Source: Candidatus Omnitrophota bacterium
GTDB lineage: Bacteria > Omnitrophota > Gorgyraeia > Gorgyraeales > Gorgyraeaceae
Direction: 5' to 3'
NCBI GenBank assembly: GCA_030649895.1
Contig: JAUSEX010000026.1
Span: forward strand, 16,823 to 80,822
Length of the DNA stretch: 64,000 nucleotides
A program made the position numbers and the translations under genes. Of this stretch, positions 4,409-51,604 are shown in pieces. A model generated the notes under the pieces. The model did not search any database. It was not told the origin of the DNA and was given only the letters and a program-made list of their open reading frames with translations. Within the stretch, counting starts at the first letter, position 1. Each line of letters starts with the position of its first letter.

Positions 4409-6424
4409 TCAAATTGACCAGACAATACTAAGATTAATTTCTTTGCCGCTTGGGATCTCGAGGCTCCATCTGGGCAATATGCAGGACGCCTGAAAGTTGA
4501 GCTCGTAAGCCCTTTCAGACTGGGATACTGTCTTGACCGGGAAATACCATATGTTTTCCGGCTTTTTTGAAAATGTAAAATAAATGTCTATCTCTTTTCC
4601 TGAATCCTTTATTGAAAACGAATCAGTCCCTGGAACCGCGCCCTTTTCATTGAGGCTAGCCAGAATTTTATCGCCTGCGGAATAACTATATCTATCTGAA
4701 TTTAAATAAGGCATTGTCAGATTGAATTCTATCCCAAAAACAGTCTCTATGGCGTCCTTGCTTAAATTTCTTAAACTATACAATATTTCTACCTGCTTCC
4801 TGCCTTTTAATTTTATTTCTTTTGTAACAGCTATGGCCTTACCATCCGCTTTACCTTCCCTCGCAAGCGCAACTTTATCTTTTCCCTTATTAGCCTTATA
4901 ACTTGCATTTATAAAATCTCCTGATTCTTTAGACTTACAATCTATAAAATCGTCTAACCCTGTTGACCTATCGATAAAATGGTCTATAAGGCATCCTCTT
5001 ACATGGCTATCATAACAAAATTCGGATTTAAGCCCCGGGTCGATAACCTTGGTATCTTCGTGAATAGTGCGCACAGCTTTTGCGTCACCGGATTCCCCCA
5101 TCTTTGCCAGTATTTTTTTGTGATACGTTTCTTCATGCCTCGCTATCGAATTGATAAGGTTCGTAGATACTTTTTTTGCGTCCAATTCCCTTATTATCCC
5201 GCCTTTGTCAGGGTCTATACACAAAGAAATCTCTTCATTCTCAATAATAAATGCCTTTTTGCCGTCCTCATAAAAATCTAACTCTTTTATCTCGACCCAG
5301 CCTTTTTTAGCTTTATGTAAAATCTTGTCTGCTATTTTTTCAGCATTTATAAGATGCTCGTAGATAGCCTTCCTTAAATGATAAAGATATAGCCCTCCGA
5401 ATACGCCATGCCAGTAAGCGCAGTTACATTGGCCTTTATATAATTCCCGTAGAGCCAGTTTTGGCTGAAGGCCGAAGGCTGAAGGCTTAATAGAATTTAC
5501 TTTTTTGCTCACATAATGCATTTTTCTGGCCATCTGATTGGCTTCAGGATAAATTCTCAGGAAATTCAGCCATGAACCATGCGACCACTCCATCATCTCC
5601 TGATATGACGCGTCAGGTATCCTTATTTTTTTCACAGGCGAATTTGAATTCAGATAATCCGACAATTTAATAGTAACAACCCAATCCTTATTCCTGGTTA
5701 ATTCCTCAAAGAATTTATTAAGCCAGTTCTGCTTATAGACCCAGTCATAGGTGAAAGGCCATTCCCCGAATTTTTCAGCGTCATCTCCGTATGTAAACAA
5801 AGGCTCATGCCTTCTTGAAGAAATTCCTTTAAAATAATCCATGATCTCGCCTGGCATTTTAAAAGGTATCATGTAGCGCAGCCTTTTGCTTGAAGGGAAG
5901 ATAGCTATCTCTTTATTTTTTTCGCCTGTTGTAAAATAACCGAACAGTTCATCTATATGCAAACCTGCTTCTATAAAATGCTCATCGTCAAGAATAGAAT
6001 ATTTCATGCCGGCCTTATTGAAATCCTTGGCAAGTTCAGGAGCCCAAACCCTTTCAGGCGTCCACATGCCTTGGGCTTTTTGGCCGAATCGTTTTTTTAC
6101 ATAATCAGCCATCATCTTTATCTGGCCGATCCTGTCAATTTCCGGTATGCTTGTAAAAATAGGTTCGTAGTAACCGCCTCCTATGATTTCCACCTGGCGC
6201 CTGTCAACCATGGCTTTAACTCTGTCCATATAATCAGGATGCTTGTCCTCAAAATAATCCAGAAGACATCCTGAAAAATGAAACGCCATTTTTATATCAG
6301 GGTATTTCTCGAATACGTCAAGGAAAGGCTTATAGCAATTTTGATAGGCCCTCTCTACAATATTATCAAAATTACCTACAGGCTGGTGAAAATGCAAACA
6401 CATCCCAAAGTAAACTTTATTCAT
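4409..6424 (-). CDS. GH57 4-α-glucanotransferase (Thermococcus litoralis-type)
   Basis: HFHQP, the GGGYYEP nucleophile region and the DDAEKFG and CNCAYWHG motifs are collinear with the characterised GH57 4-α-glucanotransferase. Confidence 0.8.
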   Translation of the reverse strand: MNKVYFGMCLHFHQPVGNFDNIVERAYQNCYKPFLDVFEKYPDIKMAFHFSGCLLDYFEDKHPDYMDRVKAMVDRRQVEIIGGGYYEPIFTSIPEIDRIGQIKMMADYVKKRFGQKAQGMWTPERVWAPELAKDFNKAGMKYSILDDEHFIEAGLHIDELFGYFTTGEKNKEIAIFPSSKRLRYMIPFKMPGEIMDYFKGISSRRHEPLFTYGDDAEKFGEWPFTYDWVYKQNWLNKFFEELTRNKDWVVTIKLSDYLNSNSPVKKIRIPDASYQEMMEWSHGSWLNFLRIYPEANQMARKMHYVSKKVNSIKPSAFGLQPKLALRELYKGQCNCAYWHGVFGGLYLYHLRKAIYEHLINAEKIADKILHKAKKGWVEIKELDFYEDGKKAFIIENEEISLCIDPDKGGIIRELDAKKVSTNLINSIARHEETYHKKILAKMGESGDAKAVRTIHEDTKVIDPGLKSEFCYDSHVRGCLIDHFIDRSTGLDDFIDCKSKESGDFINASYKANKGKDKVALAREGKADGKAIAVTKEIKLKGRKQVEILYSLRNLSKDAIETVFGIEFNLTMPYLNSDRYSYSAGDKILASLNEKGAVPGTDSFSIKDSGKEIDIYFTFSKKPENIWYFPVKTVSQSERAYELNFQASCILPRWSLEIPSGKEINLSIVWSI

Positions 6425-6435
6425 ATATATAACCC

Positions 6436-6479
6436 ATCCGACTCACGAAGTCGCCATACGGCGACTTCGTGAGTCGGAT
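6436..6479. repeat. Perfect 20-bp-stem hairpin (ATCCGACTCACGAAGTCGCC-atac-GGCGACTTCGTGAGTCGGAT) directly after the glgA stop. Family-2 CCGACTC..GAGTCGG element with an inner palindrome
   Basis: Read from the sequence. Related shorter hairpins are at 24885-24907 and 58572-58596. Confidence 0.7.
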
Positions 6480-6487
6480 AAGGTTCT

Positions 6488-7924
6488 TTATAGGTTTTTA
6501 TATAGTTTCAGATATTTTTCTGCTGATGATTCCCAGGAAAAATCGCAGGATACGCAGTTTTTGAGAAGCGCGCCCCAAAGTTTTTTATCCTTAAACGTGG
6601 CTACTGCTTCTTTAATGGCCTCTAAAAACGCCTCATTGGTAGCGTCTTTAAATTTGAACCCGTTTCCTTTTTTAGCGGAAGGGTCGAAATTCTGTATAGT
6701 ATCGTCCAGTCCGCCCACCGCCCTTACCACGGGCACGGTCGCATATTTCAGGCTATACATCTGATTTAGTCCGCAAGGCTCATATCTGGAAGGCATTAAA
6801 AACATATCTGCCCCAGCCTCTATTTTATGAGACAGGGCATTGTCAAATTTTATACTGACGCCTACATTGCCCTTATGCTTCTTAGCCATATCCTGAAATA
6901 TCTTATTATATTTTTCGTCGCCGAACCCAAGGATTACAAAATCAGAATCTTTCAGTATATCCTTCATGATATTTACAACCAAGTCTATGCCTTTCTGTTC
7001 CGCGAGACGGGTTATCATCGCTAGAATCGGCCTCTTTGCGTTATATTTTATTTCAAATGTCTTGGCAAGGTCTTTTTTGCATTCTTCCTTAGCTTTCAAA
7101 TCCTCTTCGTTGAATTTCTTAGCTATAAACTGGTCCACTGCCGGATTCCAGACAGAATAATCAACTCCATTCACTATCCCATGAAGGTCTTTTTCTCTGG
7201 TCTTTAACAAGCCATCCAGCCCGCATCCGAATTCAGTAGTCAGGATTTCTTTGCTATAGCCCTTGCTCACAGTGCTTATCGCGTCTGAAAAAACTACGCC
7301 TGTTTTCATAAAGCTTATCTTATCCCAGAATTCAATCTTGTCCTGATTAAACAAATCCCAGGATATATCAAGATACGGAACTACATCTTTGATAAAAAGC
7401 CCTTGATAAGCCATGTTATGTATCGTGAACAGCACTTTTACATTATTAAACAACGGGTCATCTTTATAATGGGTCTTTATATATAAAGGCACCAGGCCTG
7501 ACTGCCAATCATTGCAATGAAATATGTCCTGTCTGCCTATGTAAGGTATAGACGCCAGTATTGCCTTTGCGTAAAAACCGAACCTAAAGGCATTGTCCTG
7601 GTAATCGCCCTTAGGCGTGCCGTATAAAAATTCCCTGTCGTAATATTCATTTTTCTCTATAAAATACACGTCCACGCCGTTATGTTTTAAAAGGAGCAGA
7701 TTGAAAAGCTCTTCCCTGTTATTTATCTTCAAAGAGATATTTTTCTTAAACATAACGGGCTTAAAACCGTTTTTCTTAACCAACTGATAGAAAGGCATGA
7801 TCGTACTCGTCTTATGGCCTTTTTTAACAATAGCCTCTGGCAGCGCACCTACTACATCAGCTAAACCGCCGGTCTTAGCGAACGGAAAAACCTCCGGGGA
7901 AATAAATAAAATGTTCATTTTCAT
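6488..7924 (-). CDS. glgA: Glycogen (starch) synthase, GT5
   Basis: N-terminal KTGGLADV motif, about 478 aa. Confidence 0.9.
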   Translation of the reverse strand: MKMNILFISPEVFPFAKTGGLADVVGALPEAIVKKGHKTSTIMPFYQLVKKNGFKPVMFKKNISLKINNREELFNLLLLKHNGVDVYFIEKNEYYDREFLYGTPKGDYQDNAFRFGFYAKAILASIPYIGRQDIFHCNDWQSGLVPLYIKTHYKDDPLFNNVKVLFTIHNMAYQGLFIKDVVPYLDISWDLFNQDKIEFWDKISFMKTGVVFSDAISTVSKGYSKEILTTEFGCGLDGLLKTREKDLHGIVNGVDYSVWNPAVDQFIAKKFNEEDLKAKEECKKDLAKTFEIKYNAKRPILAMITRLAEQKGIDLVVNIMKDILKDSDFVILGFGDEKYNKIFQDMAKKHKGNVGVSIKFDNALSHKIEAGADMFLMPSRYEPCGLNQMYSLKYATVPVVRAVGGLDDTIQNFDPSAKKGNGFKFKDATNEAFLEAIKEAVATFKDKKLWGALLKNCVSCDFSWESSAEKYLKLYKNL

Positions 7925-7989
7925 CCTTTCTTTGCCTATCCCGCTCTCCGGACGGGAATCATTCTGTCCGGGGGAACGGGATCAAGCTG

Positions 7990-9201
7990 TCATTGCAGAA
8001 TTTCGTCCCTGATTTTGCTGGCTATATGCCTTGCAGCAATCACTTTCCCGTAGCATTTTTTCTTTTCGAAATTCCTGCACCCTGAGCTGGCAACTGCCAG
8101 GTACGCATTAAACACTACTTCCTCTTGAAGGATAAGGCCTTTATTTACAAGATTTTCGCTCCACATCCTGCCTTTATTAGCCCACCAGAACTGGCAGCTG
8201 TGCAAAGCCATGTCCAGGTTTTCCCTGGCTGTATTAAAAAATTGCGCTGACTTTTCATTATCATTCTTATCTTCCGCTTCCCGGAATATCTCCAGGCATG
8301 TATCCATATATTCCCACTGCAGCCTGTGGATTGTATTGTGAGGCGTGTTCCATAGTGGATAATAGTTTCCCGCCATTATTTCTTCATTGGAGGTGCTCCA
8401 GGAAGAAGGCCTGGGAGGCTTTACCTTAACTGCTGGAAATATTTCCGATAAATCGCTGATCTTAACCACCTTTACTTCCTTTGAATCTCTTATTATTTCA
8501 TACGCTTTCCCCAAAAACATATTTTCCCAGCCATGGATATGATGGCCGAACGTTTCCGCGTCCATAGCCGTTATTATATAAGCATTTTCCTTGCCTTCCG
8601 CCAATTCTTTAATCCTTGACACAAACCCCGCGGCATCTATATTTTTAAAACTTATCATATTGCTGATTATATCGTCTCTGAAAAATACCTTCATGGAACC
8701 TGAGCCAAGCTTAAAATTTGACGTATAATCCATAGGCCATTTCCCCTGGCATGCGATCCCGCTCACTATAACCCACTCATAACCCATGCCTCTTACAATA
8801 GAGCCTGCTGCGTCAGAGTAGCACATCTCTGGCGGGAAAAATCCTTTTGGCTTATAGCTGTCTTTAAAAAAAGACAGGTTTGTTTTTTTATTCAGCTCTA
8901 TCTGCCTCCTGGCTTCATTCTCGGGTATCAAAGGTAGTATCGCGTGAAATTTCGCTGATTCTGTAAATTCTATCTGTCCAAGCCTGCCTAGTTCCATAAG
9001 GCCGGTTGGGACATCTCCAAAGCCATGATCAGCCAGCATCTCAGTCAGCACCCCGCACATATTTATCGTAACCCTGGATTCGGGATGATCTTTAAAGACC
9101 TTAACCAGAGGCCTGTAAGATTCTTCACAAATCTTTGCCAATACGCCATGCGACTGCGTCGGAGGTTGATAAAAATGTAAAAGCGGCGCCCAATATATCA
9201 T
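7990..9201 (-). CDS. Glycoside hydrolase family 57 protein of unknown specificity (about 400 aa class)
   Basis: N-terminal HFYQP motif and a DAETFGHH catalytic-Asp region. It overlaps the DUF2934 gene by 4 nt (ATGA). Confidence 0.7.
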   Translation of the reverse strand: MIYWAPLLHFYQPPTQSHGVLAKICEESYRPLVKVFKDHPESRVTINMCGVLTEMLADHGFGDVPTGLMELGRLGQIEFTESAKFHAILPLIPENEARRQIELNKKTNLSFFKDSYKPKGFFPPEMCYSDAAGSIVRGMGYEWVIVSGIACQGKWPMDYTSNFKLGSGSMKVFFRDDIISNMISFKNIDAAGFVSRIKELAEGKENAYIITAMDAETFGHHIHGWENMFLGKAYEIIRDSKEVKVVKISDLSEIFPAVKVKPPRPSSWSTSNEEIMAGNYYPLWNTPHNTIHRLQWEYMDTCLEIFREAEDKNDNEKSAQFFNTARENLDMALHSCQFWWANKGRMWSENLVNKGLILQEEVVFNAYLAVASSGCRNFEKKKCYGKVIAARHIASKIRDEILQ

Positions 9202-9446: not shown

Positions 9447-10775
9447 CTATCCCAGCGCTTCCATGCCCCTGCGGCAAATCTCCTTTGCGTAATCTGTCCA
9501 TGCGCCTGTGCCCCAGTATCGGAAGCAGCTGGTCTGGGATAATAATAGATAAAGAAGCGCCTTTCTGTAGGGAACAGTTTGAAGCCGCCCTCTAACTATT
9601 TCATTGTCAAATTTTTTATGAAATGCCGCGCTAAGCCGGGTTATAGGATCCATTATATCTTTATATCCGCTCACCCAATCTTTATCATTTGTCCAGGACG
9701 CCTTTTCCAGGCTAAAGCCAGGATATTTTTGTTTTGCTTTCTCAATAGCCATGTCAGCTGCGCCAGGAGAATATCCTTTTATGAATTCCCAGATCCTAGC
9801 CTGAGAAATCGGTTGCACCGGCATAAAAGAATTTTCTTTAAGGCCTGAGTTTTTTACAAATTCAAGATATTCTGTAGCGTTCATGCTGACTACGCCTTCC
9901 CTGCCTATTTCCTGAAAAACTATTTTATACATATTCGGAAACTCGTTCATCATGACTCCGCCGTTTTCCCCATCCCCTATCTGTGCCACAAAAGGCGGCA
10001 GATCTACCCCGCAATATTTTTCATTGCCAAGGCCTTTAGCTTCATAATACGGCTGCATCTGCCCGATCAGCTTATTGTCAGAACCCTGGGTTTTTATAAC
10101 GGCTATAATTTCAATCTTTTCCCCTAGAGAATTTTTAGCGACTAATTTGTGCGGAAAATGCGGCCTTCTTACAGGCGTGCCGTCGAGATTCTCTATTGTA
10201 TGCTCCTGGACCATGAGCCATTTATATCCACACTCTTTCAGGGCCTTTATATATTCAAAACACACATCGGGATGTATGGGAAGGTGCATCTCAGGCGCAG
10301 AAAAACCCTTCACCCTCTCAAGCGCTTTCTGACCGAATATTGAGGCAAAATGCTCTCGCCATTCTTGTATATGAAGCCTGATATCCGGGACAGGCGTAGA
10401 GCTGACAACGGCGTGCGACCACATTGTCCCGAGCCATTCAACATAGTTATAATATTTTTTGTCACAGGTCACAAGTTTCAAATTTTCCAGGACCTTTTCT
10501 TCGCCCATGTCTTTAAGGCCCCAGAGAAGGTTTCCCGAATAATCCAGCATAATCCTTGGATCTTTACCTTGACTGGAAAGTTCTCTTATAAAATCAGATA
10601 TCCTGGTATAGCAATTCAAAAATACAGGCGCATTGTGATTATCCCCTGTATTCTGATGCTCCATCATATACTGCAGATTGGAAATTAGCTTTGCCGTCCT
10701 GAGATCCTCGCCGCCTGCAGGAATAATAGGCTGATGCATATGAAGCGCTACGCCAAAACATGATTGTATCTTCAT
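9447..10775 (-). CDS. Glycoside hydrolase family 57 protein (third paralog, unknown specificity)
   Basis: HMHQP, a GFSAPEMHLP nucleophile-like region and GDGENGG. It overlaps the upstream branching enzyme by 4 nt. Confidence 0.7.
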   Translation of the reverse strand: MKIQSCFGVALHMHQPIIPAGGEDLRTAKLISNLQYMMEHQNTGDNHNAPVFLNCYTRISDFIRELSSQGKDPRIMLDYSGNLLWGLKDMGEEKVLENLKLVTCDKKYYNYVEWLGTMWSHAVVSSTPVPDIRLHIQEWREHFASIFGQKALERVKGFSAPEMHLPIHPDVCFEYIKALKECGYKWLMVQEHTIENLDGTPVRRPHFPHKLVAKNSLGEKIEIIAVIKTQGSDNKLIGQMQPYYEAKGLGNEKYCGVDLPPFVAQIGDGENGGVMMNEFPNMYKIVFQEIGREGVVSMNATEYLEFVKNSGLKENSFMPVQPISQARIWEFIKGYSPGAADMAIEKAKQKYPGFSLEKASWTNDKDWVSGYKDIMDPITRLSAAFHKKFDNEIVRGRLQTVPYRKALLYLLLSQTSCFRYWGTGAWTDYAKEICRRGMEALG

Positions 10776-12397
10776 GCCACGCCTTCCTTTATTTTTGCCT
10801 GGATATAGTATTCAGCGCAATCCATGTCAGAAAAAATGTTATCTCTCGATTCGACTTCCCGAAGCCATTCTCCTTCAATAGATCCGGCAAGCATGCCATT
10901 ATAAATATGCGTGAATCTGTTTATATGAAGCTTCACCCTTTTATCGGCATACTCTACCATGGTGCCTGTTTTCATTATAAACGGCCAATCGCTTGCCTGC
11001 GCCAAAAGAAGCTCTCTAGCTGCCTGATTCAGCGCCCGCCTCGCAAGCTCGTTTTTGCCATTATTCATGCAATTAGAAAATTTTCCGGCCAGCTCTTTCA
11101 TCCTCTCGCCTGCGACATGCAAATGCCTGTATATCCAATCATTGCTGCCTTCCAGCCAGACTTCGTTATAACCTTTATAACCCCACGTAGATGTTGACGG
11201 AACAGACATTTGATTTACCGAATATTCCCTCAGGTAATCTGAAGGCGTAGCAAGTTTTACTGTCTTCTGATCATATGCGATTTTACGAATCAGAAAATCT
11301 ATCCACATCGGGCCTTCGAACCACCAGTGGCCGAATAACTCCGCGTCATAAGGAGAAATAATCATGGGCTTTCTGTCCATATGATACGCGACATGCTCTA
11401 TCTGTTTTTCCCGGTTAAACATAAAATTCCCTGCGTGCATAGCTGCCTTTTCCTTTGCCCATTCAGGGACATATGGCTCTTTATGATCGGTATTTCCTGT
11501 AATCCTCCAGTATTTAAGGCCCGTATTTATTCTGAATCCTATCGGATGAATGTAGGGTTTTATATAGTCGTATTCCAATTCATATCCTATATCCCTGTAG
11601 TATTCCCTGTAATCGGAGTCTCCCGGATAACCTTCTTTTGAGCTCCACACCTGTTTGGAAGATTCCCAATCTCTTCCAAATGCTGCAACGCCTGAAGGAC
11701 AGTACAGAGGCGCGTATACGCTATATCTCGGTTCTGGATCCGCATTTACAATACCATGCGAATCTACAAAGAAATATTTAATGCCTGCTTCTGCCAAAAA
11801 ATTATCAACGCCAGGAGTATATCCGCATTCAGGCAGCCAGAACCCTACGGGGTCTCTGCCAAATGTTTTTCTGTAATGATCCACTCCAATCTTTACCTGA
11901 GCCTCTGCGTCTGTAGGATTTACGCTTAATATAGGCAAAAATCCATGAGTAGCGCACGAAGCCAGGATCTCTACGAAACCAAGATCCTGGAATTTCTTAA
12001 ACGCAGCCACCAGATCTTTTTTATATTTACCTACAAATACCTCTTTCGCCTCTACAAATTTCCTGTAATACATCAGAGCGAGGCCGTGATATTTAGGGTC
12101 GAAACCCGTGCGCTGGACTTCCTTGTCTGCGAGTTCGATTAATTTATCAATATGCCTTATATATCTATTCTGGAGAAGCTCATCCCGGAGCATTGACGCC
12201 AATGTGGGCGTCAGGGACATTGTTATGCGGAAATCCACATGGTCTTCTACTAATTTTTCAAAAACCTGAATCAGCGGTATATAAGTTTCTGTAATGGCTT
12301 CATAGAGCCAGTTCTCCTCGAGAAAATCTTCCTCTTCAGGATGCCTGACAAATGGCAGGTGCGCGTGCAATACTAAACAAAGATAACCTTTATGCAT
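10772..12397 (-). CDS. GH57-type 1,4-α-glucan branching enzyme
   Basis: LHAHLPFVRH, PYDAELFGHWWFEG and EASDWPF-like motifs are collinear with the Thermus and Thermococcus GH57 branching enzymes. Confidence 0.85.
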   Translation of the reverse strand: MHKGYLCLVLHAHLPFVRHPEEEDFLEENWLYEAITETYIPLIQVFEKLVEDHVDFRITMSLTPTLASMLRDELLQNRYIRHIDKLIELADKEVQRTGFDPKYHGLALMYYRKFVEAKEVFVGKYKKDLVAAFKKFQDLGFVEILASCATHGFLPILSVNPTDAEAQVKIGVDHYRKTFGRDPVGFWLPECGYTPGVDNFLAEAGIKYFFVDSHGIVNADPEPRYSVYAPLYCPSGVAAFGRDWESSKQVWSSKEGYPGDSDYREYYRDIGYELEYDYIKPYIHPIGFRINTGLKYWRITGNTDHKEPYVPEWAKEKAAMHAGNFMFNREKQIEHVAYHMDRKPMIISPYDAELFGHWWFEGPMWIDFLIRKIAYDQKTVKLATPSDYLREYSVNQMSVPSTSTWGYKGYNEVWLEGSNDWIYRHLHVAGERMKELAGKFSNCMNNGKNELARRALNQAARELLLAQASDWPFIMKTGTMVEYADKRVKLHINRFTHIYNGMLAGSIEGEWLREVESRDNIFSDMDCAEYYIQAKIKEGVA

Positions 12398-12405
12398 AGC
12401 TATAT

Positions 12406-12486
12406 AATAGGGACGGTTCTATAAGTAAAGCTAGATATGTCCCTTTAGGGGACATATCTCCGATTGGCTCTAGAACCGTCCCTATT
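12406..12486. repeat. TAGGGAC-arm palindromic element copy 2. Outer 16-bp inverted repeat AATAGGGACGGTTCTA..TAGAACCGTCCCTATT enclosing an inner 11-bp-stem hairpin (AGATATGTCCC-tttag-GGGACATATCT). It overlaps the DUF4912 stop
   Basis: Read from the sequence. It shares the terminal AATAGGGAC with copies 1 and 3. Confidence 0.7.
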
Positions 12487-13723
12487 CTGTTTTTCTTTCT
12501 ACAGTTGTAGAAATTTTTCTTGTCTCTACTTTATCGTGCGAAGTTGCGGTAAAAGGCAATGGGATTTTCGCGTCCGGAAGCGCAAACCTCATGCTGAAAG
12601 TCCCGTCCGGTTTAAGGTCTATTTTTTTATCTCCCAGTTTTACCTCCGCGTCAGGCTCTGTGCGGCCATACACTATAAGCTCTGCGCCTATCTCAAAAAA
12701 GAATTTGCGTTTCTTATCCGGCTGGACAAATTCACTCGCGCCTCCCTGCAAGTTCTCGCTCCCCCCAAGATATGCAAATTCAGATGCCCCGATCATAATC
12801 TTTCTGCCAAATTTCACGTTGTGCAGCCTTTTGAAATAAAGCAGGTCGTGCCATTCTTTTCCTGACATATTGGAATATAAATACCTATATAGCTTCTTTC
12901 TTGAAATCCTGGAAAACATCGCATCTCTTAATAAAGGAGAAAGCCTTGAATAATAAGCCCTCAGGTCCGCCTCGGTAAGATATATCTTTCTTCGTTTAGA
13001 TACAGCCGAGTAACTGAACCTGCCTGCTGCGTCATATTGAACCCCTCGGCTTCGCTCAAAGCAGGCAGCTCCTTCGGTCTTCATAGGCGTAGCCTGTTCG
13101 CTACCTGCCTCCTGAGTCAGGTCCATCCATATCTCTTCAAATCTGCTAGATGTGCCAGATCTAGGGGTATGTACGAAATTAGACCTGGCCATAGGAAAAA
13201 ATCTTCCGGAGTGATGAACTATACCTATCTCTCCCAGATACGAGGCATTATCATTCCACAGACTTATATACCAGTTATTAGAATAGCGGCCCACCTCTAT
13301 GTCAAACCAATGGTTAGCGTTAAACCCGTTAAAATCTTTATATGTGACGTCATACATGCGGACAACAAACCTTGCGCCGTCCAGATTCCCGCCTAATTTG
13401 CGTTTAACGTCCTCTATCGAACTCTCCGCTATTTCCCAGTAAGCGTATATCCAGAAAGGGTCTTTTGCTATTAAAGTAATTCTTGTTGTAGTGTTATACG
13501 AAGGAAGTTCATATTCATTTATTGCCGCAGGCCTAAACGCGCCTTTACGTTCTTGTATTACGCAGGAAGGTTCCTGAACAGTAGCTGCTGGCCTTAAAAC
13601 AACCGGTTGCTTATATTTTATCCTTCTCTTAACAGTCCTGACAGTAGCCTCTCTGCCGTCTCTGTAAACACGCTCTATGGGTTTTCTTTTCTTAAGTTTT
13701 ATTTTTTTACCTGGCATATACAT
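12482..13723 (-). CDS. DUF4912 domain protein with a Lys/Arg-rich N-terminal tail and an uncharacterised C-terminal domain
   Basis: DPFWIYAYWEI and the downstream block match the DUF4912 signature. Its 5' end overlaps the GT4 gene by 17 nt. Confidence 0.65.
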   Translation of the reverse strand: MYMPGKKIKLKKRKPIERVYRDGREATVRTVKRRIKYKQPVVLRPAATVQEPSCVIQERKGAFRPAAINEYELPSYNTTTRITLIAKDPFWIYAYWEIAESSIEDVKRKLGGNLDGARFVVRMYDVTYKDFNGFNANHWFDIEVGRYSNNWYISLWNDNASYLGEIGIVHHSGRFFPMARSNFVHTPRSGTSSRFEEIWMDLTQEAGSEQATPMKTEGAACFERSRGVQYDAAGRFSYSAVSKRRKIYLTEADLRAYYSRLSPLLRDAMFSRISRKKLYRYLYSNMSGKEWHDLLYFKRLHNVKFGRKIMIGASEFAYLGGSENLQGGASEFVQPDKKRKFFFEIGAELIVYGRTEPDAEVKLGDKKIDLKPDGTFSMRFALPDAKIPLPFTATSHDKVETRKISTTVERKTE

Positions 13724-14867
13724 CCATAACCTGGTCAGCTACAATATCCCAGGAAAAAGCGGTCTCAACTGCAATTCTTCCGTTAGCCCCCATCCATCTT
13801 GCGTGGTCAAAATCTGAAAATACCGTGCCTATGCCCCATGCTATTGACTCGGGATTTGCGTATACCTTTAGACCTGTGATATCATGCCATATTATTTCCC
13901 CTGGCCCGCCGTTTGAGGTGGCGACTACAGGTTTTCCTGCGCTCCACGCCTCCAGCAAAACTATGCCGAACGGCTCGTTTCTTGAAGGCATGCACACAAC
14001 ATCCGCAGCTTTATAAATATCAGAGAGCTTCCAGCCATTGCTAAAGCCTATAAACCTTGTAGCGTGATGAACGCCTATCTCTTTTGCCCTGTCTTCCACG
14101 CACCAGCGCATTTCTCCGTCGCCTACAAAAACAAATTTTGCATTATTGTGGTATCTAAGTATGTGAGGCATGGCTTCTATCAAAAGATCCGGGCCTTTTT
14201 GATAAACCATCCTGCCGACAAAAAGCACCATCGGATCTAACGGCCCAATACCATAATAATTCCTGACAGCCGCAGAGTCTATCCACCCGTCAAAATTCTT
14301 GCAATTGACGCCATTATACACTACGTCCACTTTCCAATCAGAGGTATTATACATCCATTGTATTTCTCCCTTGAGAGCCCTAGACACAGCTATCACATGA
14401 TCAGCGCAGTATGTGCCATGCCTTTCATGATCGCGAATCCTAGCAGAATTTCCGTCATTAAAATTATTACCGCACCTGCCGTATTCAGTCGAATGGATTG
14501 TCAGTACAGCTTTGGAGGGACGCACATGCTTTATCCAGACCATTGCGTTTGACGTAAGCCAATCGTGGCTGTGTATCACGTCAAACGGACCCGTAACGCC
14601 CTCTGTACGAAAAAACGTATCCACAAAAGAGCGGCACATGTTATTTATCTCTTCTACGAAATCAGGATTCTTATCAAAGGGGCATCTGTGGTAATGCACT
14701 CCTTGAATGCACTCATACCATGGCTGGTTAGCGCTTCCCATCCGCGTAAAAACATGGACTTCATTACCTTTGCGCTCAAGGGCTGCTGCGAGCTCTGTAA
14801 CGTGCACGCCCACCCCGCCCACGCAAATAGAATGCATAGATTCCCAGGAAAATATCGCTATTCTCAT
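13707..14867 (-). CDS. Glycosyltransferase family 4 (archaeal glycogen-synthase-like or GlgM-like retaining GT)
   Basis: N-terminal GT4 Rossmann domain (RIAIFSWESMHSICVGGVGVHV) and a C-terminal GT1-type domain with the E..G-P motifs. Confidence 0.75.
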   Translation of the reverse strand: MRIAIFSWESMHSICVGGVGVHVTELAAALERKGNEVHVFTRMGSANQPWYECIQGVHYHRCPFDKNPDFVEEINNMCRSFVDTFFRTEGVTGPFDVIHSHDWLTSNAMVWIKHVRPSKAVLTIHSTEYGRCGNNFNDGNSARIRDHERHGTYCADHVIAVSRALKGEIQWMYNTSDWKVDVVYNGVNCKNFDGWIDSAAVRNYYGIGPLDPMVLFVGRMVYQKGPDLLIEAMPHILRYHNNAKFVFVGDGEMRWCVEDRAKEIGVHHATRFIGFSNGWKLSDIYKAADVVCMPSRNEPFGIVLLEAWSAGKPVVATSNGGPGEIIWHDITGLKVYANPESIAWGIGTVFSDFDHARWMGANGRIAVETAFSWDIVADQVMDVYAR

Positions 14868-15005: not shown

Positions 15006-15320
15006 TTAAAGTTCTATCACTGAGTTTTCCGAGCCGAAAGTATTTACCACGAAAAGATTGTTTAAGGGGTCTCTCTGCCACTGGCCATCAACTAAATATT
15101 TATACTCGTAACGGCCGGATTTTAGGGTTAAGTCTCTTTTCCAGACTCCATCTTTAGACTTTTTGAGGCTGGCGTTTGATGCGTCCCATGAATTAAAATC
15201 GCCCGCAAGGCGAACATCCTTTGCGTTTGGAGCGCTTATCTTAAAAGCCACCTTTTTTGTTAAATTTTTCTTAACAGCCATTTCCCCCTCCTTTTTTTGG
15301 CACCACGCACCATTCTGCAT
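15006..15320 (-). CDS. Stand-alone CBM48 / AMPK-β-like glycogen-binding domain protein (about 100 aa)
   Basis: VRLAGDFNSWD...W...L.L..G.YEYKYLVDGQWQRDP is the CBM48 signature. The start could instead be the internal Met (MAVKKN). Confidence 0.7.
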   Translation of the reverse strand: MQNGAWCQKKEGEMAVKKNLTKKVAFKISAPNAKDVRLAGDFNSWDASNASLKKSKDGVWKRDLTLKSGRYEYKYLVDGQWQRDPLNNLFVVNTFGSENSVIEL

Positions 15321-15408: not shown

Positions 15409-16059
15409 CTATATAGTGGTTATGCCTTCTTTGAGTGCGTACCTGATGAGGTCTGCGTGGCGATGAATGCCCAATTTCTGCATTATATTGTTTCTATGCG
15501 CTAAAGCGGTTTTTAAAGAAATCTTAAGGTGGGCAGCAACTTCTTTATTTGTATAGCCCTCAGCAACGAGCTGGAGGACCTCTCTTTCCCTGTCAGTAAG
15601 GCTGACTATCTTTTTTCCCTTTATCTTTTGGCCTCTTGAATCAATATAATCCTGTATCACAAAAGTGGATATCCTCTGGCTGAGAAAATATTCATCTTCA
15701 TAAACTACGCGTATAGCCTGGATGATTTCATCAGCCGCGGAATCTTTTAAAACATACCCTCTGATACCTAAACTCAACGCCCTTTCTATAAACGCCCTGT
15801 TGTCATGCATGCTCAATATAATAATTTTATTTTTTGGATTAATCTGCATTATCTGGCTTGAGGCCTCTAAGCCATTCAATATCGGCATTGTTATGTCAAT
15901 TATAAATATATCTGCGGAACTTTTTTTTGCTATATCCACGGCCTCTTTGCCGTTCGATGCCTCTGCGACAACCTTCATATCCTGTTCCTGGAATATCACG
16001 GCGCTCAAACCCTGCCTTACTATCGCATGATCATCTGCCAGAACTATCTCTATAGCCAT
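15409..16059 (-). CDS. Response regulator, NarL/FixJ (LuxR-HTH) family
   Basis: REC domain plus a C-terminal LuxR HTH (LTDREREVLQLVAEGYTNKEVA). Confidence 0.9.
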   Translation of the reverse strand: MAIEIVLADDHAIVRQGLSAVIFQEQDMKVVAEASNGKEAVDIAKKSSADIFIIDITMPILNGLEASSQIMQINPKNKIIILSMHDNRAFIERALSLGIRGYVLKDSAADEIIQAIRVVYEDEYFLSQRISTFVIQDYIDSRGQKIKGKKIVSLTDREREVLQLVAEGYTNKEVAAHLKISLKTALAHRNNIMQKLGIHRHADLIRYALKEGITTI

Positions 16060-16103
16060 AATTTTTTCTCTATCGCCTCCGTTCGCAGAACGAAGGCAGT
16101 AAC

Positions 16104-16781
16104 TTACATTTCTTCGATTATCGGGAAAGTCACATTTATCTTCGTTCCGTTTTTAGGCTTAGACTCCAGTAAAAATTTACCGTTCAATAAATCCACCCGC
16201 TCCCTCATGCCGCGCAAACCAAGCTTATCTATATTCGCGTCTTTGAAAAATGCCCCTGTGTCGAACCCTATGCCATTGTCCTCTATTGTAAGAATTATTT
16301 CCCCTCCCTTAAGCAATAAATCTATCTTTACATTTTTCGCCTTCGCGTGCTTTACAATATTATTAAACGCCTCCTGAATAACCCTGTAAAGAGTTATTGC
16401 CATATCGTCTTTTATGCTAACGCCGGCCAGGTTTTCTCTAAATTTTATATTTAAAGGGTGCGATTTTGTATAATGGGAAAAAAGTTCTCGCAAAACCGAT
16501 GGCAGGCCCAGCATACCTAACTCTGCAGGCCTCAGGTCTATAAAAAGCGTTCTGAATCTTTCCGCTGTATTAGCCAGGATTGTTTTTGCGTCTTTTATTA
16601 TGCTAAGGGCGCTATCAAAATTGCGCTTCGATATTTCTTTTTCAATTATATTCAATGCTGAGCCAAGAGATACCGAAAACTGGCCTATCTCATCATGAAG
16701 ATCCCGCGATATCCTGTGCCTTTCCTCTTCCTGGATAGCGAGTATCTTCTTCGAAAATTCCCTTGCTGCTATATCTTTCAT
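16104..16781 (-). CDS. Cytoplasmic histidine kinase (HisKA_3 + HATPase_c) with no membrane or sensor domain
   Basis: LHDEIGQ H-box and N, G1, G2 boxes. It is 225 aa with no hydrophobic segments. Confidence 0.85.
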   Translation of the reverse strand: MKDIAAREFSKKILAIQEEERHRISRDLHDEIGQFSVSLGSALNIIEKEISKRNFDSALSIIKDAKTILANTAERFRTLFIDLRPAELGMLGLPSVLRELFSHYTKSHPLNIKFRENLAGVSIKDDMAITLYRVIQEAFNNIVKHAKAKNVKIDLLLKGGEIILTIEDNGIGFDTGAFFKDANIDKLGLRGMRERVDLLNGKFLLESKPKNGTKINVTFPIIEEM

Positions 16782-17931: not shown

Positions 17932-18936
17932 TTACTTTGCCGTGCAAGCTTCTCTCAAGCATTTAGCGGTCAGTTCAGGCGAGGTAGGGTTTATATAAAG
18001 GCCTGAACCCCATTCAAAACCAGCCACATTTGTCAATTTCGGCATTATCTCCAAGTGCCAGTGGAATTCTTCATAAATACCGTCTCTTATGGGCGCTGTG
18101 TGAATTATAAAATTATACGCAGGATCATTGAGCCTCAGCTTAAGCCTCAAAAGAATTTCTCTTAATATGCCCGCCATATCATAAATCGTAGAATCGTCTA
18201 TAAGCTTAAATTCTGGGCTATGCGCCTTAGGCAATATCCATGTCTCAAAAGGAAAGCGGGACACAAAAGGACAAAATGCGATAAAATGTTTATTTTCTAA
18301 AATTATTCTTTCTTTTTCCTGCTGTTCCTGGGATATCATATCGCAAAAAACACATCTCTCCTTGTACTTAAAATAATTCTGAGCGCCCTTAAGTTCTTCC
18401 TTGACCCTTTTCGGGACAATAGGCAGCGCAACAAGCTGGGTATGGGAATGCTCCAGAGACGCGCCCGCAGCTTCTCCGTGATTTTTAAAAAGCAGGATAT
18501 ACCTGAATCTCGTATCGTTTTCCAGGTCCACGCTCCTTGATTTATACTTAGATATCACATTGACTATCTCGTCCTGCGTCAGATCAGCAAGATCCTTATT
18601 GTGGTCTGTGTTTTCAACTATAACTTCATGAGCGCCAATGCCGTTTGACATATCAAACATACCGATAGCGCGATTATCCAGATCTCCCTCTATTTTCAAG
18701 GCGGGAAATTTATTCGATACCACTCTGACTGTCCAGCCAGGCGTGTCAGGCCTTGTTTTAATGTCCCTTACAGCCTCTATTTCCGGCGGAGTCATCTTTT
18801 CGTTCCCCTGGCAAAACGGGCAAGTCCCGCCTTTTTTAGTCTGCGGCTTAATATCAAACTCATCGCATCTCTTTGGATTAGAGACAGCTATCTCTACCCA
18901 TCTTCCCGTTATCGGATCGCGCCTTAATTGAGACAT
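17932..18936 (-). CDS. galT: Galactose-1-phosphate uridylyltransferase-like HIT-family nucleotidyltransferase (intact HxHxQ)
   Basis: CPFCQGNE zinc motif and an intact EHSHTQ active site. The track start at 18948 is a TTG. The ATG at 18936 gives MSQLRRDPITGRW, which parallels the paralog. Confidence 0.85.
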   Translation of the reverse strand: MSQLRRDPITGRWVEIAVSNPKRCDEFDIKPQTKKGGTCPFCQGNEKMTPPEIEAVRDIKTRPDTPGWTVRVVSNKFPALKIEGDLDNRAIGMFDMSNGIGAHEVIVENTDHNKDLADLTQDEIVNVISKYKSRSVDLENDTRFRYILLFKNHGEAAGASLEHSHTQLVALPIVPKRVKEELKGAQNYFKYKERCVFCDMISQEQQEKERIILENKHFIAFCPFVSRFPFETWILPKAHSPEFKLIDDSTIYDMAGILREILLRLKLRLNDPAYNFIIHTAPIRDGIYEEFHWHLEIMPKLTNVAGFEWGSGLYINPTSPELTAKCLREACTAK

Positions 18937-18956
18937 GTGTCCCTTCAATACTAGTT

Positions 18957-18999: not shown

Positions 19000-20028
19000 T
19001 TATAGCACAACTTCCCGTAAATATTTCGCTGCTTCTTCCGGCGGAGTAGGATTTATATAAAAACCTGAACCCCATTCAAAACCAGCCACCTGAGTAATCC
19101 TGGGCATAACTTCTATATGCCAGTGATAATCTTCCTCGATAGTATGCCAATACCCAAGCCTCTTTGACCGCCTAAAGGGGGCCGTGTGCAGCATATAATT
19201 GTACGGCGGATCATTCAATGCCTTTGAAAGCTTTGCAAATACTGTCTTCAAAACACTTGCCAGGTCTTTTATCTCGTCGCCTTGTATGTTCATAAAATCC
19301 GCCCTGTGGACTTTTGGCATTATCCATATTTCAAAAGGGAATCTTGAGGCAAAAGGCGCTATCGCCACCACTGTTTTTGTATCCATGACAACCCTGGAGC
19401 CTGTATCTATTTCCTGGCTTATGATATCGCAGAAAATACATCTTTCTTTGTATTCAAAATAAAAGCGCGAACCCCTAAGCTCTTCCTTCACCCTGGTAGG
19501 GGTAACAGGTGTTGCGATAAGCTGAGACCTTAAATGTTTTGTCCTGCTGCTCCCGCCCGCTTTTAATCCATGATTCTTAAACAAAAGGCAGTATTTAAAC
19601 CGAATATCTTTCTCAAGCTCGCTAATACGATAAATAGAAGTATTAATGACATCCTGTATCTCAGGTTCTGATAACTGATATACATCCGTAAGATGTTTTG
19701 GAGATTCTATTATGATCTCATGCGCGCCTATAGGGTTCATAACATCGTACATCCCGACCCCGCGCCTGTTCAGGTCCCCTTCTATTATAAATTTAGGGGC
19801 TATGCTAGGGACAACCCTGACATTCCAGCCGGGCGTATCTTTCTTTGTGTCCGGCTTTCTGATCGCAAATATCTCCGCAGGGGTTTTATTTTCACGCCCC
19901 TCGCAAAAAGGGCATTCCATTTCAGGCTCATCCGCATGTTTTATATTAAAATCGCTCGGCCTTTTAGCCCTTTCAGTGGATATTATAACCCATCTTCCTA
20001 TTACCGGATCTCTTCTTAGTTCTGGCAT
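19000..20028 (-). CDS. GalT-like HIT-family paralog with the nucleophilic His replaced (HLRSQ instead of HxHxQ)
   Basis: Collinear with the adjacent galT and keeps CPFCEGRE. The active-site segment reads KHLRSQ, so the second His is Arg. Confidence 0.8.
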   Translation of the reverse strand: MPELRRDPVIGRWVIISTERAKRPSDFNIKHADEPEMECPFCEGRENKTPAEIFAIRKPDTKKDTPGWNVRVVPSIAPKFIIEGDLNRRGVGMYDVMNPIGAHEIIIESPKHLTDVYQLSEPEIQDVINTSIYRISELEKDIRFKYCLLFKNHGLKAGGSSRTKHLRSQLIATPVTPTRVKEELRGSRFYFEYKERCIFCDIISQEIDTGSRVVMDTKTVVAIAPFASRFPFEIWIMPKVHRADFMNIQGDEIKDLASVLKTVFAKLSKALNDPPYNYMLHTAPFRRSKRLGYWHTIEEDYHWHIEVMPRITQVAGFEWGSGFYINPTPPEEAAKYLREVVL

Positions 20029-38012: not shown

Positions 38013-38066
38013 ACCCTGTCCACCCCGCAGGCGGCCCAATTGGGCCGCCTGCGGGGTGGACAGGGT
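38013..38066. repeat. 54-nt perfect GC-rich palindrome (ACCCTGTCCACCCCGCAGGCGGCCCAA|TTGGGCCGCCTGCGGGGTGGACAGGGT) between the riboswitch terminator and the ribBA RBS
   Basis: Read from the sequence. There are 27 of 27 complementary positions and no loop. Confidence 0.8.
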
Positions 38067-41219: not shown

Positions 41220-41240
41220 CCACTTTAATAGACTTTAATA

Positions 41241-41303
41241 GGGACAGCGCCCTATTTTAACTTGTCCTCTGAAATTTTCGCGTATAAAATAGGGCGCTGT
41301 CCC
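41241..41303. repeat. TAGGGAC-arm palindromic element copy 3 (18-bp arms GGGACAGCGCCCTATTTT / AAAATAGGGCGCTGTCCC, 27-nt spacer), between the gpsA stop and the tRNA-Pro 5' end
   Basis: Read from the sequence. Each arm is also internally palindromic (TAGGG-ACAGCG-CCCTA). Confidence 0.7.
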
Positions 41304-41336
41304 TTAATTATACCACATATAAAGCGCGGTTTCAAA

Positions 41337-51547: not shown

Positions 51548-51558
51548 TCCTTTCTTAA

Positions 51559-51596
51559 TTCCGCTATGCGATCGGAAGCCCGATCGCATAGCGGAA
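51559..51596 (-). promoter_or_regulatory. Perfect 17-bp-stem hairpin (TTCCGCTATGCGATCGG-aagc-CCGATCGCATAGCGGAA) between fabD and fabG, with no U-tract
   Basis: Read from the sequence. It lies within the fabD-fabG spacer directly upstream of the fabG RBS. Confidence 0.5.
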
Positions 51597-51604
51597 TCGG
51601 TCTA

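Follow-up and report, generated by a model that had tools for sequence, protein, structure and literature searches.

What would a protein of the DUF4912 family with a strongly basic N terminus be doing in an operon for α-glucan synthesis? The question is raised by a 64,000-nucleotide (nt) stretch of DNA from a Candidatus Omnitrophota bacterium (contig JAUSEX010000026.1, positions 16,823 to 80,822; here called the window, in whose coordinates all positions below are given). In it, a DUF4912-family gene on the minus strand (12482 to 13717; 411 amino acids (aa) from the ATG at 13717, with its stop codon at 12482 to 12484) lies between the genes for a GT4 glycosyltransferase and a GH57 glycogen branching enzyme. 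Comparison of its relatives across genomes revealed that the constant partner of the DUF4912 gene is the branching enzyme gene, and we consider it very probable that the two proteins are functionally linked. The reading that we favor, albeit tentatively and at somewhat below even odds, is that the DUF4912 protein acts as a noncatalytic accessory of the downstream branching enzyme, with its variable N terminus serving as a tether or localizer.

The assignment to DUF4912, originally made by eye, was borne out by a hidden Markov model search, in which the protein matched PF16258 with an E value of 1.9e-31 and a score of 109.2 bits against a cutoff of 29.4. The open reading frames (ORFs) also lie where the initial annotation of the window had placed them, both on the minus strand (12482 to 13723, 413 aa, for DUF4912 and 13707 to 14867, 386 aa, for GT4), the 413-aa version beginning at an in-frame ATG further upstream, at 13723. 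However, a 100% identical database protein of 411 aa (MPGKK...), encoded in the metagenome-assembled genome of a Candidatus Omnitrophota bacterium, uses the second ATG, at 13717, as its start, as do the homologues. Hence, although the DUF4912 and GT4 genes do overlap, the 17 nt originally given for the overlap apply only to the upstream ATG, and the likely value is 11 nt. The PF16258 match spans aa 79 to 196 in the 413-aa numbering, which corresponds to aa 77 to 194 of the 411-aa protein, and the same domain is carried by all 292 homologues found. Pfam searches with the window protein recovered DUF4912 alone and no catalytic domain, and no NCBIfam model matched it. It is an ordinary member of a large uncharacterized family, with hundreds of near relatives that bear the same tail.

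The linkage of this family to the GH57 branching enzyme was assessed by scanning one genome per species; 580 relatives were found, and at the best 79 loci, which were kept, the neighboring ORFs were scored with the proteins of the window. Of the 73 loci with enough downstream DNA, 71 have the DUF4912 gene immediately followed, on the same strand, by one for a GH57 branching enzyme; loci from Nitrospirota, Sericytochromatia, and Bacillota are among them. The two genes are separated by a median of 43 nt (30 nt or less in 27 of 60 cases), and in seven instances they overlap by 8 nt. In the window, they are in the same frame, with four stop codons in the 84-nt spacer (12398 to 12481) between them. 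Beyond this sample, the pair is kept in four of five further contexts of ordinary DUF4912 architecture. In these four, it is a bare pair of DUF4912 and GH57/BE_C genes whose neighborhoods are otherwise free of glycogen genes; they comprise Gloeobacter kilaueensis, where the DUF4912 protein has a Rho_N domain, and three members from the short Omnitrophota clade and two other lineages (P0186, P0139, and P0156).

The linkage to GT4 and GH57 genes anticipated by the initial annotation therefore holds in that relatives are linked to both, but GT4 is the less constant neighbor. It immediately precedes the DUF4912 gene in 48 of 66 loci, each of which has the Omnitrophota-type cluster (CBM48, GT4, DUF4912, GH57 branching enzyme, and GH57-like genes). 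This distribution bears on the putative role of glucan granule or primer-associated factor suggested in the same annotation. In a version patterned on glycogenin, a self-glucosylating GT8 primer, the upstream GT4 enzyme would attach glucose to a conserved tyrosine of the DUF4912 protein, from which a glucan would then be extended. The translational coupling of the DUF4912 gene to GT4 in this clade, by way of the 11-nt overlap, and the presence of two conserved tyrosines (Y93 and Y150) in the window protein would accommodate such a scheme. On the other hand, the DUF4912 protein is widespread, whereas GT4 is missing from its neighborhood outside the Omnitrophota-type cluster, and neither Pfam searches nor the predicted structure revealed a glycosyltransferase domain, including GT8, or a glycosyltransferase fold in the window protein. 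To our knowledge, moreover, bacterial glycogen synthases require no protein primer. We therefore regard a glycogenin-like function as highly improbable.

The architecture of the protein was analyzed with an AlphaFold2 model built on 48 homologues, together with sequence alignments. The DUF4912 core (aa 77 to 194; 13136 to 13489, minus strand, as are all the segments of the protein given below) is predicted to adopt an FN3/Ig-like β-sandwich, modeled at residues 77 to 190 with predicted local distance difference test (pLDDT) values of 90 to 96, and is distinguished by conserved tryptophan and tyrosine residues (DPxWxYAYWE and NNWY). It is followed by a disordered and variable linker and then by a conserved helical segment (aa 247 to 300, YLTEADLRAYYSRLSPLLRD...; 12818 to 12979) that is apparent in both the homologue alignment and the model, with helices at residues 249 to 257, 261 to 272, and 286 to 299 (pLDDT around 60). 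A second disordered linker (aa 301 to 335; 12713 to 12817; pLDDT below 50) contains three G-[AG]-S-E repeats, which the alignment shows to be kept within the Omnitrophota clade.

The C-terminal domain (aa 336 to 411; 12485 to 12712), which had been described as β-rich and uncharacterized, is indeed β-rich by structure prediction, with a pLDDT of 96 when modeled alone and the β domain at residues 341 to 411 in the full model. It is not without relatives, however: it adopts a small Ig-like β-sandwich that is probably related to domain B of glucodextranase, with which, among solved structures, it shares the highest sequence identity (32%). The window protein itself gave no Pfam match to Glucodextran_B (PF09136; gathering cutoff of 27 bits) at E values of up to 1. 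Among 240 homologues, 235 have this C-terminal β domain, and the other five are short and apparently truncated. Searches of PDB sequences with family profiles retrieved no relative of solved structure, the only matches being at chance level: the PDB entry 2lcg (E values of 0.17 to 0.22) and the N terminus of Rho (E value of 0.11), the latter match deriving from the family members with Rho_N.

The N-terminal tail (aa 1 to 45; 13583 to 13717) is as basic as originally remarked, with 17 lysines and arginines against 3 acidic residues (net charge of +14; pI of 11.6); no other 45-aa stretch in the 46 window ORFs that reach 200 aa or more is as rich in Lys/Arg. Its description as ribosomal protein-like is apt as to composition but did not extend to homology, as it matched no ribosomal family in Pfam or among PDB sequences. 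More generally, the tail alone retrieved no Pfam family at an E value of 0.1 or better, and a profile of 28 tail sequences gave only chance-level, nonribosomal matches to PDB sequences and Pfam. By inspection, we also rejected its interpretation as a signal peptide, the basic residues being followed by no hydrophobic stretch.

Within the tail, we found a conserved motif, P-I-E-R-V-Y-x-x-G-R-E-A-x-V (aa 13 to 27; 13637 to 13681), that is predicted to form a β-hairpin, with strands at residues 15 to 19 and 22 to 26 (pLDDT around 70) in an otherwise mostly disordered segment. Residues R16, Y18, G21, and E23 (R-x-Y-x-x-G-x-E) show no variation among 28 homologues, even though identity over the tail is only 26 to 67%. 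The persistence of an invariant motif in such divergent tails indicates that the tail is a translated sequence under selection rather than an artifact of ORF extension. Close homologues retain the basic composition, many of them also having the motif (P-I-E-R-V-Y-x-x-G-R-E-A-I-V), and the RVYxxGRE signature is confined to a subset of the relatives. Its use as a tracker of the upstream GT4 and CBM48 genes was rejected, as many GT4-bearing loci are without the motif.

When 1.84 billion representative proteins were searched with a family profile, 9459 DUF4912 members (clusters at 50% identity) were returned at an E value of 1e-3 or better; the family has representatives in Omnitrophota, cyanobacteria, Sericytochromatia, Nitrospirota/Nitrospinota, Bacillota, and Planctomycetes. 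What is constant across phyla is the DUF4912 core with the C-terminal domain, and the N terminus is an exchangeable module. In 82 diverse members, Pfam searches recovered, single matches aside, only DUF4912, Glucodextran_B, and Rho_N (PF07498), the last in 29 of them. The Rho_N helix-hairpin is the N-terminal module in cyanobacteria, Sericytochromatia, and Planctomycetes; the window protein gave no Pfam match to it. The region before the core ranges from 18 to 411 aa in length across the homologues, and in 240 of them it is basic in 153 (net charge of +8 or more), Rho_N-like in 41, mildly basic in 19 (+3 to +7), and neutral or acidic in 22. Some Omnitrophota tails (at loci L051, L072, and L078) extend to 130 to 250 aa of KK[ST]P/AKKK repeats, including runs of the KKSP/SPKK type. 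That orthologues carry Rho_N or long Lys-rich KKSP/SPKK-type tracts in place of the tail lends indirect support to the notion that the tail may bind a polyanion. Binding to nucleic acids in particular is possible, though we would put it at distinctly less than an even chance.

A distinct set of long cyanobacterial-type paralogues (P0361 to P0392, and positions 6001 to 9165 of locus L084; 800 to 1540 aa) displays a different arrangement. It begins with a signal peptide, a periplasmic PBP_like_2 (PstS-like) or WD40 domain, and a transmembrane helix followed by Lys/Arg residues; DUF4912 repeats, two to six in number, come next, and the C-terminal domain is last. In the one context available for a paralogue of this transmembrane type (P0366), there is no GH57 gene nearby. 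In such paralogues, a periplasmic phosphate-binding-type domain would, from the inferred topology, be joined to cytoplasmic DUF4912 repeats. The presence of a transmembrane anchor at the N terminus of these paralogues is also consistent with a general tethering role for this region.

It could accordingly be proposed that the DUF4912 protein is a partner of the branching enzyme whose Lys/Arg-rich tail holds the machinery at the inner face of the membrane by way of acidic phospholipids. The long paralogues lend this some credence, as they possess a genuine transmembrane helix followed by Lys/Arg residues, which by the positive-inside rule would place their DUF4912 repeats in the cytoplasm, and the N termini of the short Omnitrophota clade, such as MKILKKSKEVLMKTISKAKSKLKL, look on reading like amphipathic basic helices. 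In contrast, a β-hairpin is the sole ordered element in the predicted structure of the window tail, which shows no amphipathic helix, and the modules found at the same position elsewhere in the family, namely, Rho_N (29 of 82 members) and Lys-rich tracts of the SPKK type, are typical of nucleic acid binders rather than membrane binders. A membrane anchor hence seems unlikely to us for the protein of the window.

A further proposal is that the tail has no specific ligand at all and is a fast-evolving disordered extension that serves solubility, charge balance, or entropic spacing, the function of the protein residing wholly in its two folded domains. The enormous variability of the N-terminal region in length and sequence fits this proposal, as does the existence of orthologues with no tail or an acidic one. 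So does the pace of evolution of the protein as a whole: in four pairs verified to lie on the same contigs, the DUF4912 proteins are about 49 to 82% identical to that of the window versus 74 to 93% for the branching enzymes. However, the prevalence of a basic composition (153 of 240 homologues) and the invariance of R-x-Y-x-x-G-x-E in 28 of them are not what it would lead us to expect, and the exchange of the tail for a folded Rho_N domain or a transmembrane anchor argues that the position is functional. We judge a ligand-free tail to be improbable, and a module that tethers the protein remains our preferred interpretation of the N terminus.

The recurrence of Rho_N raises yet another explanation, whereby the protein would be a regulator acting at the level of RNA or DNA. 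By means of the tail or Rho_N, it would govern how the glucan operon is expressed or terminated, or would act on transcription in general. In support of this, cyanobacterial proteins combining Rho_N and DUF4912 were flagged as "Rho-like" in a metagenomic study (PMC13613805), Rho_N being present in the 29 members noted above. Further, the spacer just downstream of the DUF4912 gene contains a very stable nested hairpin (12398 to 12486), with an outer stem of 15 bp and an inner stem of 11 bp (minimum free energy of -43.5 kcal/mol; z score of -7.4), which was also recovered as an inverted repeat. The domain composition of the family points the other way, as neither the RNA-binding (OB) domain nor the RecA-type ATPase domain of Rho was found in the window protein or in any of the 82 members, and, according to the metagenomic study itself, the protein is unable to bring about termination on its own (PMC13613805). 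Nor does the hairpin look like a conserved regulatory element: the 12-nt sequence of its outer arm was not found at any of 83 related loci, and close relatives differ in the length of the spacer. The strict pairing with a single enzyme gene and the two conserved β-sandwiches are better accounted for by a structural partner of that enzyme, and a regulatory role is accordingly quite unlikely in our view.

As an observation in its own right, the window contains further long hairpins with perfect or near-perfect arms of 18 to 27 bp (1951 to 2028, 6436 to 6479, 38013 to 38066, 41240 to 41304, and 51558 to 51597), of which that at 6436 to 6479 is located between glgA and the GH57 gene adjacent to it. 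Those at 1951 to 2028 and 41240 to 41304 share a core of the ATAGGGAC/ATAGGGCG type with the hairpin of the DUF4912 spacer (ATAGGGACGG), and hairpins with this core may constitute a repeat family of this genome resembling repetitive extragenic palindromic elements.

The manner in which a noncatalytic accessory could assist the branching enzyme can be conceived as follows. The FN3-like core, with its many conserved aromatic residues, and the C-terminal Ig-like domain would bind α-glucan, the branching enzyme, or both. In doing so, they would supply in trans the β-sandwich that GH57 branching enzymes lack and that their GH13 counterparts carry as CBM48. The N-terminal module would tether the glucan-branching machinery to a polyanionic structure, such as the nucleoid, RNA, or an acidic membrane, with the nucleoid or RNA being the likeliest target of the basic and Rho_N versions. 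The capacity to bind glucan is the component of this scheme for which we hold the chances to be only slightly short of even.

Several observations weigh against this scheme and temper the confidence that can be placed in it. Both folded domains match generic FN3/Ig folds, and a homology of DUF4912 to CBM48 was rejected on the basis of an hhalign probability of 0.1% against the alignment of the CBM48 family present in the operon. Similarly, no CBM family of Pfam matched the window protein or the 82 members, and no homology to starch-binding CBMs was detectable. The loci on which the linkage was measured are those of the most similar relatives and are hence biased toward Omnitrophota. The DUF4912 gene of Kovacikia, a derived cyanobacterium, is not beside GH57, and there is no GH57 gene within the 16.8-kb locus around that of a Gemmatales genome. 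Bacillota orthologues have acidic or very short N termini, which implies that polyanion binding is not required family-wide. Finally, GH57 branching enzymes characterized from Thermus, Thermococcus, Pyrococcus, and Thermotoga need no partner for activity in vitro, so that a DUF4912 partner cannot be essential for catalysis.

The genes surrounding the pair support the description of the locus as an α-glucan operon given in the initial annotation. The conserved module, on the minus strand as are all genes of the cluster, opens with a gene for a stand-alone glycogen-binding protein of the CBM48/AMPK1_CBM type (15006 to 15320; 104 aa), identified with Pfam. In most Omnitrophota loci, this gene is likewise found upstream of GT4, and it is duplicated in two of them (L046 and L057). 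It is followed by the GT4 gene (13707 to 14867; 386 aa), whose 3' end overlaps the start of the DUF4912 gene. Its product has strong matches to Glycos_transf_1 and Glyco_transf_4; its closest NCBIfam model is glgA_Coryne, below the cutoff, and its relatives are weak and ambiguous, namely, MshA, sucrose-phosphate synthase, GlgM, and BshA. Downstream of DUF4912, the branching enzyme (10772 to 12397; 541 aa), recognized by Glyco_hydro_57 and BE_C in Pfam and NCBIfam, is a regular member of the characterized GH57 family. Its closest solved structure is AmyC of T. maritima (2b5d; E value of 3.6e-157), followed by the enzymes of Pyrococcus, Thermococcus, and Thermus, and neither Pfam nor NCBIfam recovered a CBM of its own.

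The next gene (9447 to 10775; 442 aa), which overlaps the stop codon of the branching enzyme gene by 4 nt, codes for a divergent GH57-like protein with a weak Pfam match to GH57 in its N-terminal half (E value of 3.5e-7) and no NCBIfam model. It occurs right after the branching enzyme gene in nearly all Omnitrophota-type loci and is an uncharacterized part of the same module. Beyond it lie genes assigned by Pfam and NCBIfam to a GH57 enzyme (7990 to 9201), GlgA of the GT5 family (6488 to 7924), and a GH57 enzyme with a 4-α-glucanotransferase C-terminal domain (4409 to 6424). The Bacillota-type loci (L068 to L073 and L079) are organized differently. Upstream of the DUF4912 gene, they have on the opposite strand a second, divergent GH57 gene with a score of about 290 bits against the branching enzyme; the opposite strand likewise carries a GT4 gene, some 4 kb downstream, and the N terminus of the DUF4912 protein is acidic or short. 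Directly upstream of the glucan cluster of the window (15409 to 16781, minus strand), we observed genes for a LuxR-type response regulator and for a fragment of a HisKA_3 histidine kinase, whose ORF (225 aa) includes neither a sensor nor a transmembrane region. A few kilobases upstream of the cluster are two tandem GalT/HIT-type, DUF4921-like paralogues with GalP_UDP_transf N and C domains (17932 to 18948 and 19000 to 20028, minus strand); these could produce or cleave NDP-glucose used by the glucan cluster.

What is of interest here lies at the level of the family, namely, an unstudied and widely conserved companion of the GH57 branching enzyme with a swappable N terminus, which is directly testable. 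GH57 branching enzymes have been studied as stand-alone proteins, and yet the genes of a family of about 9,500 clusters (at 50% identity) nearly always immediately precede theirs. If the two work together, the in vitro data obtained on GH57 enzymes without the partner are perhaps incomplete with respect to the level of activity, the hydrolytic side reaction, and the preference for chain length. The exchangeable N-terminal module, whether a basic tail, Rho_N, or a membrane anchor, further offers a handle on whether and how bacteria position glycogen granules.

With respect to the literature, our search returned one relevant paper on DUF4912 (PMC13613805) and none that mentions PF16258, and the GH57 branching enzyme papers and the large α-glucan review that were searched mention neither DUF4912 nor a partner gene. 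In that one paper, as far as the passage covered goes, a possible link of the cyanobacterial proteins to termination is discussed, their function is left open, and GH57 is not mentioned (PMC13613805). These "Rho-like" proteins share the DUF4912 core and C-terminal domain with the window protein and differ from it in having a folded Rho_N N terminus instead of a disordered Lys/Arg-rich tail, and the Gloeobacter gene lies directly upstream of a GH57 branching enzyme. Were our favored reading true, they would be factors of glycogen metabolism rather than of termination. The resemblance to the termination factor Rho itself does not reach the OB and RecA-type ATPase domains that define its architecture, as these were not found in the window protein.

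Among carbohydrate-active systems, CBM48, both in GH13 branching enzymes and as the stand-alone protein of this operon, offers the parallel of a noncatalytic β-sandwich tied to an enzyme of α-glucan branching or synthesis, though it is not homologous to DUF4912 (the hhalign result above) and the binding of glucan by DUF4912 is putative. Domain B of glucodextranase (PF09136; PDB 1ULV), to which the C-terminal domain is probably related, is in its own setting part of a secreted GH15 enzyme acting on α-glucan; the window protein itself, as noted above, gave no Pfam match at E values of up to 1. In plants, the PTST family and ESV1/LESV are nonenzymatic proteins with aromatic-rich β structure or a CBM that cooperate with starch synthases and influence how the glucan is structured or how granules are initiated. 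These are eukaryotic, unrelated in sequence, and have no link to GH57, so that the comparison is one of analogy only.

A further parallel, in general design, is found outside glucan metabolism. PhaM and PhaF of polyhydroxyalkanoate granules are noncatalytic proteins that bind the storage-polymer enzyme or granule and tether granules to the nucleoid through a Lys-rich, histone H1-like tail. By analogy, the DUF4912 protein, as proposed here, would likewise combine a folded partner-binding part with a basic tail. The two groups have no relation in sequence or fold, and the tail of the DUF4912 protein is N terminal and, in the window, although Lys/Arg-rich (17 of 45 residues), has none of the AAKP, PAKKA, or SPKK repeats; long tails of KK[ST]P/AKKK repeats do occur in the relatives at loci L051, L072, and L078. 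As a bolder conjecture, to which we assign a low likelihood, DUF4912 proteins might be organizers of the bacterial site of glycogen synthesis of a kind not yet described, and thus the glycogen counterpart of PhaM and PhaF. As such, they would hold the GH57 branching enzyme, joined in Omnitrophota by GT4 and the CBM48 protein, on the glucan as it grows, and would anchor the granule to the nucleoid or membrane through their exchangeable N-terminal module. Both the place of granule formation and the inheritance of granules would be under their control.

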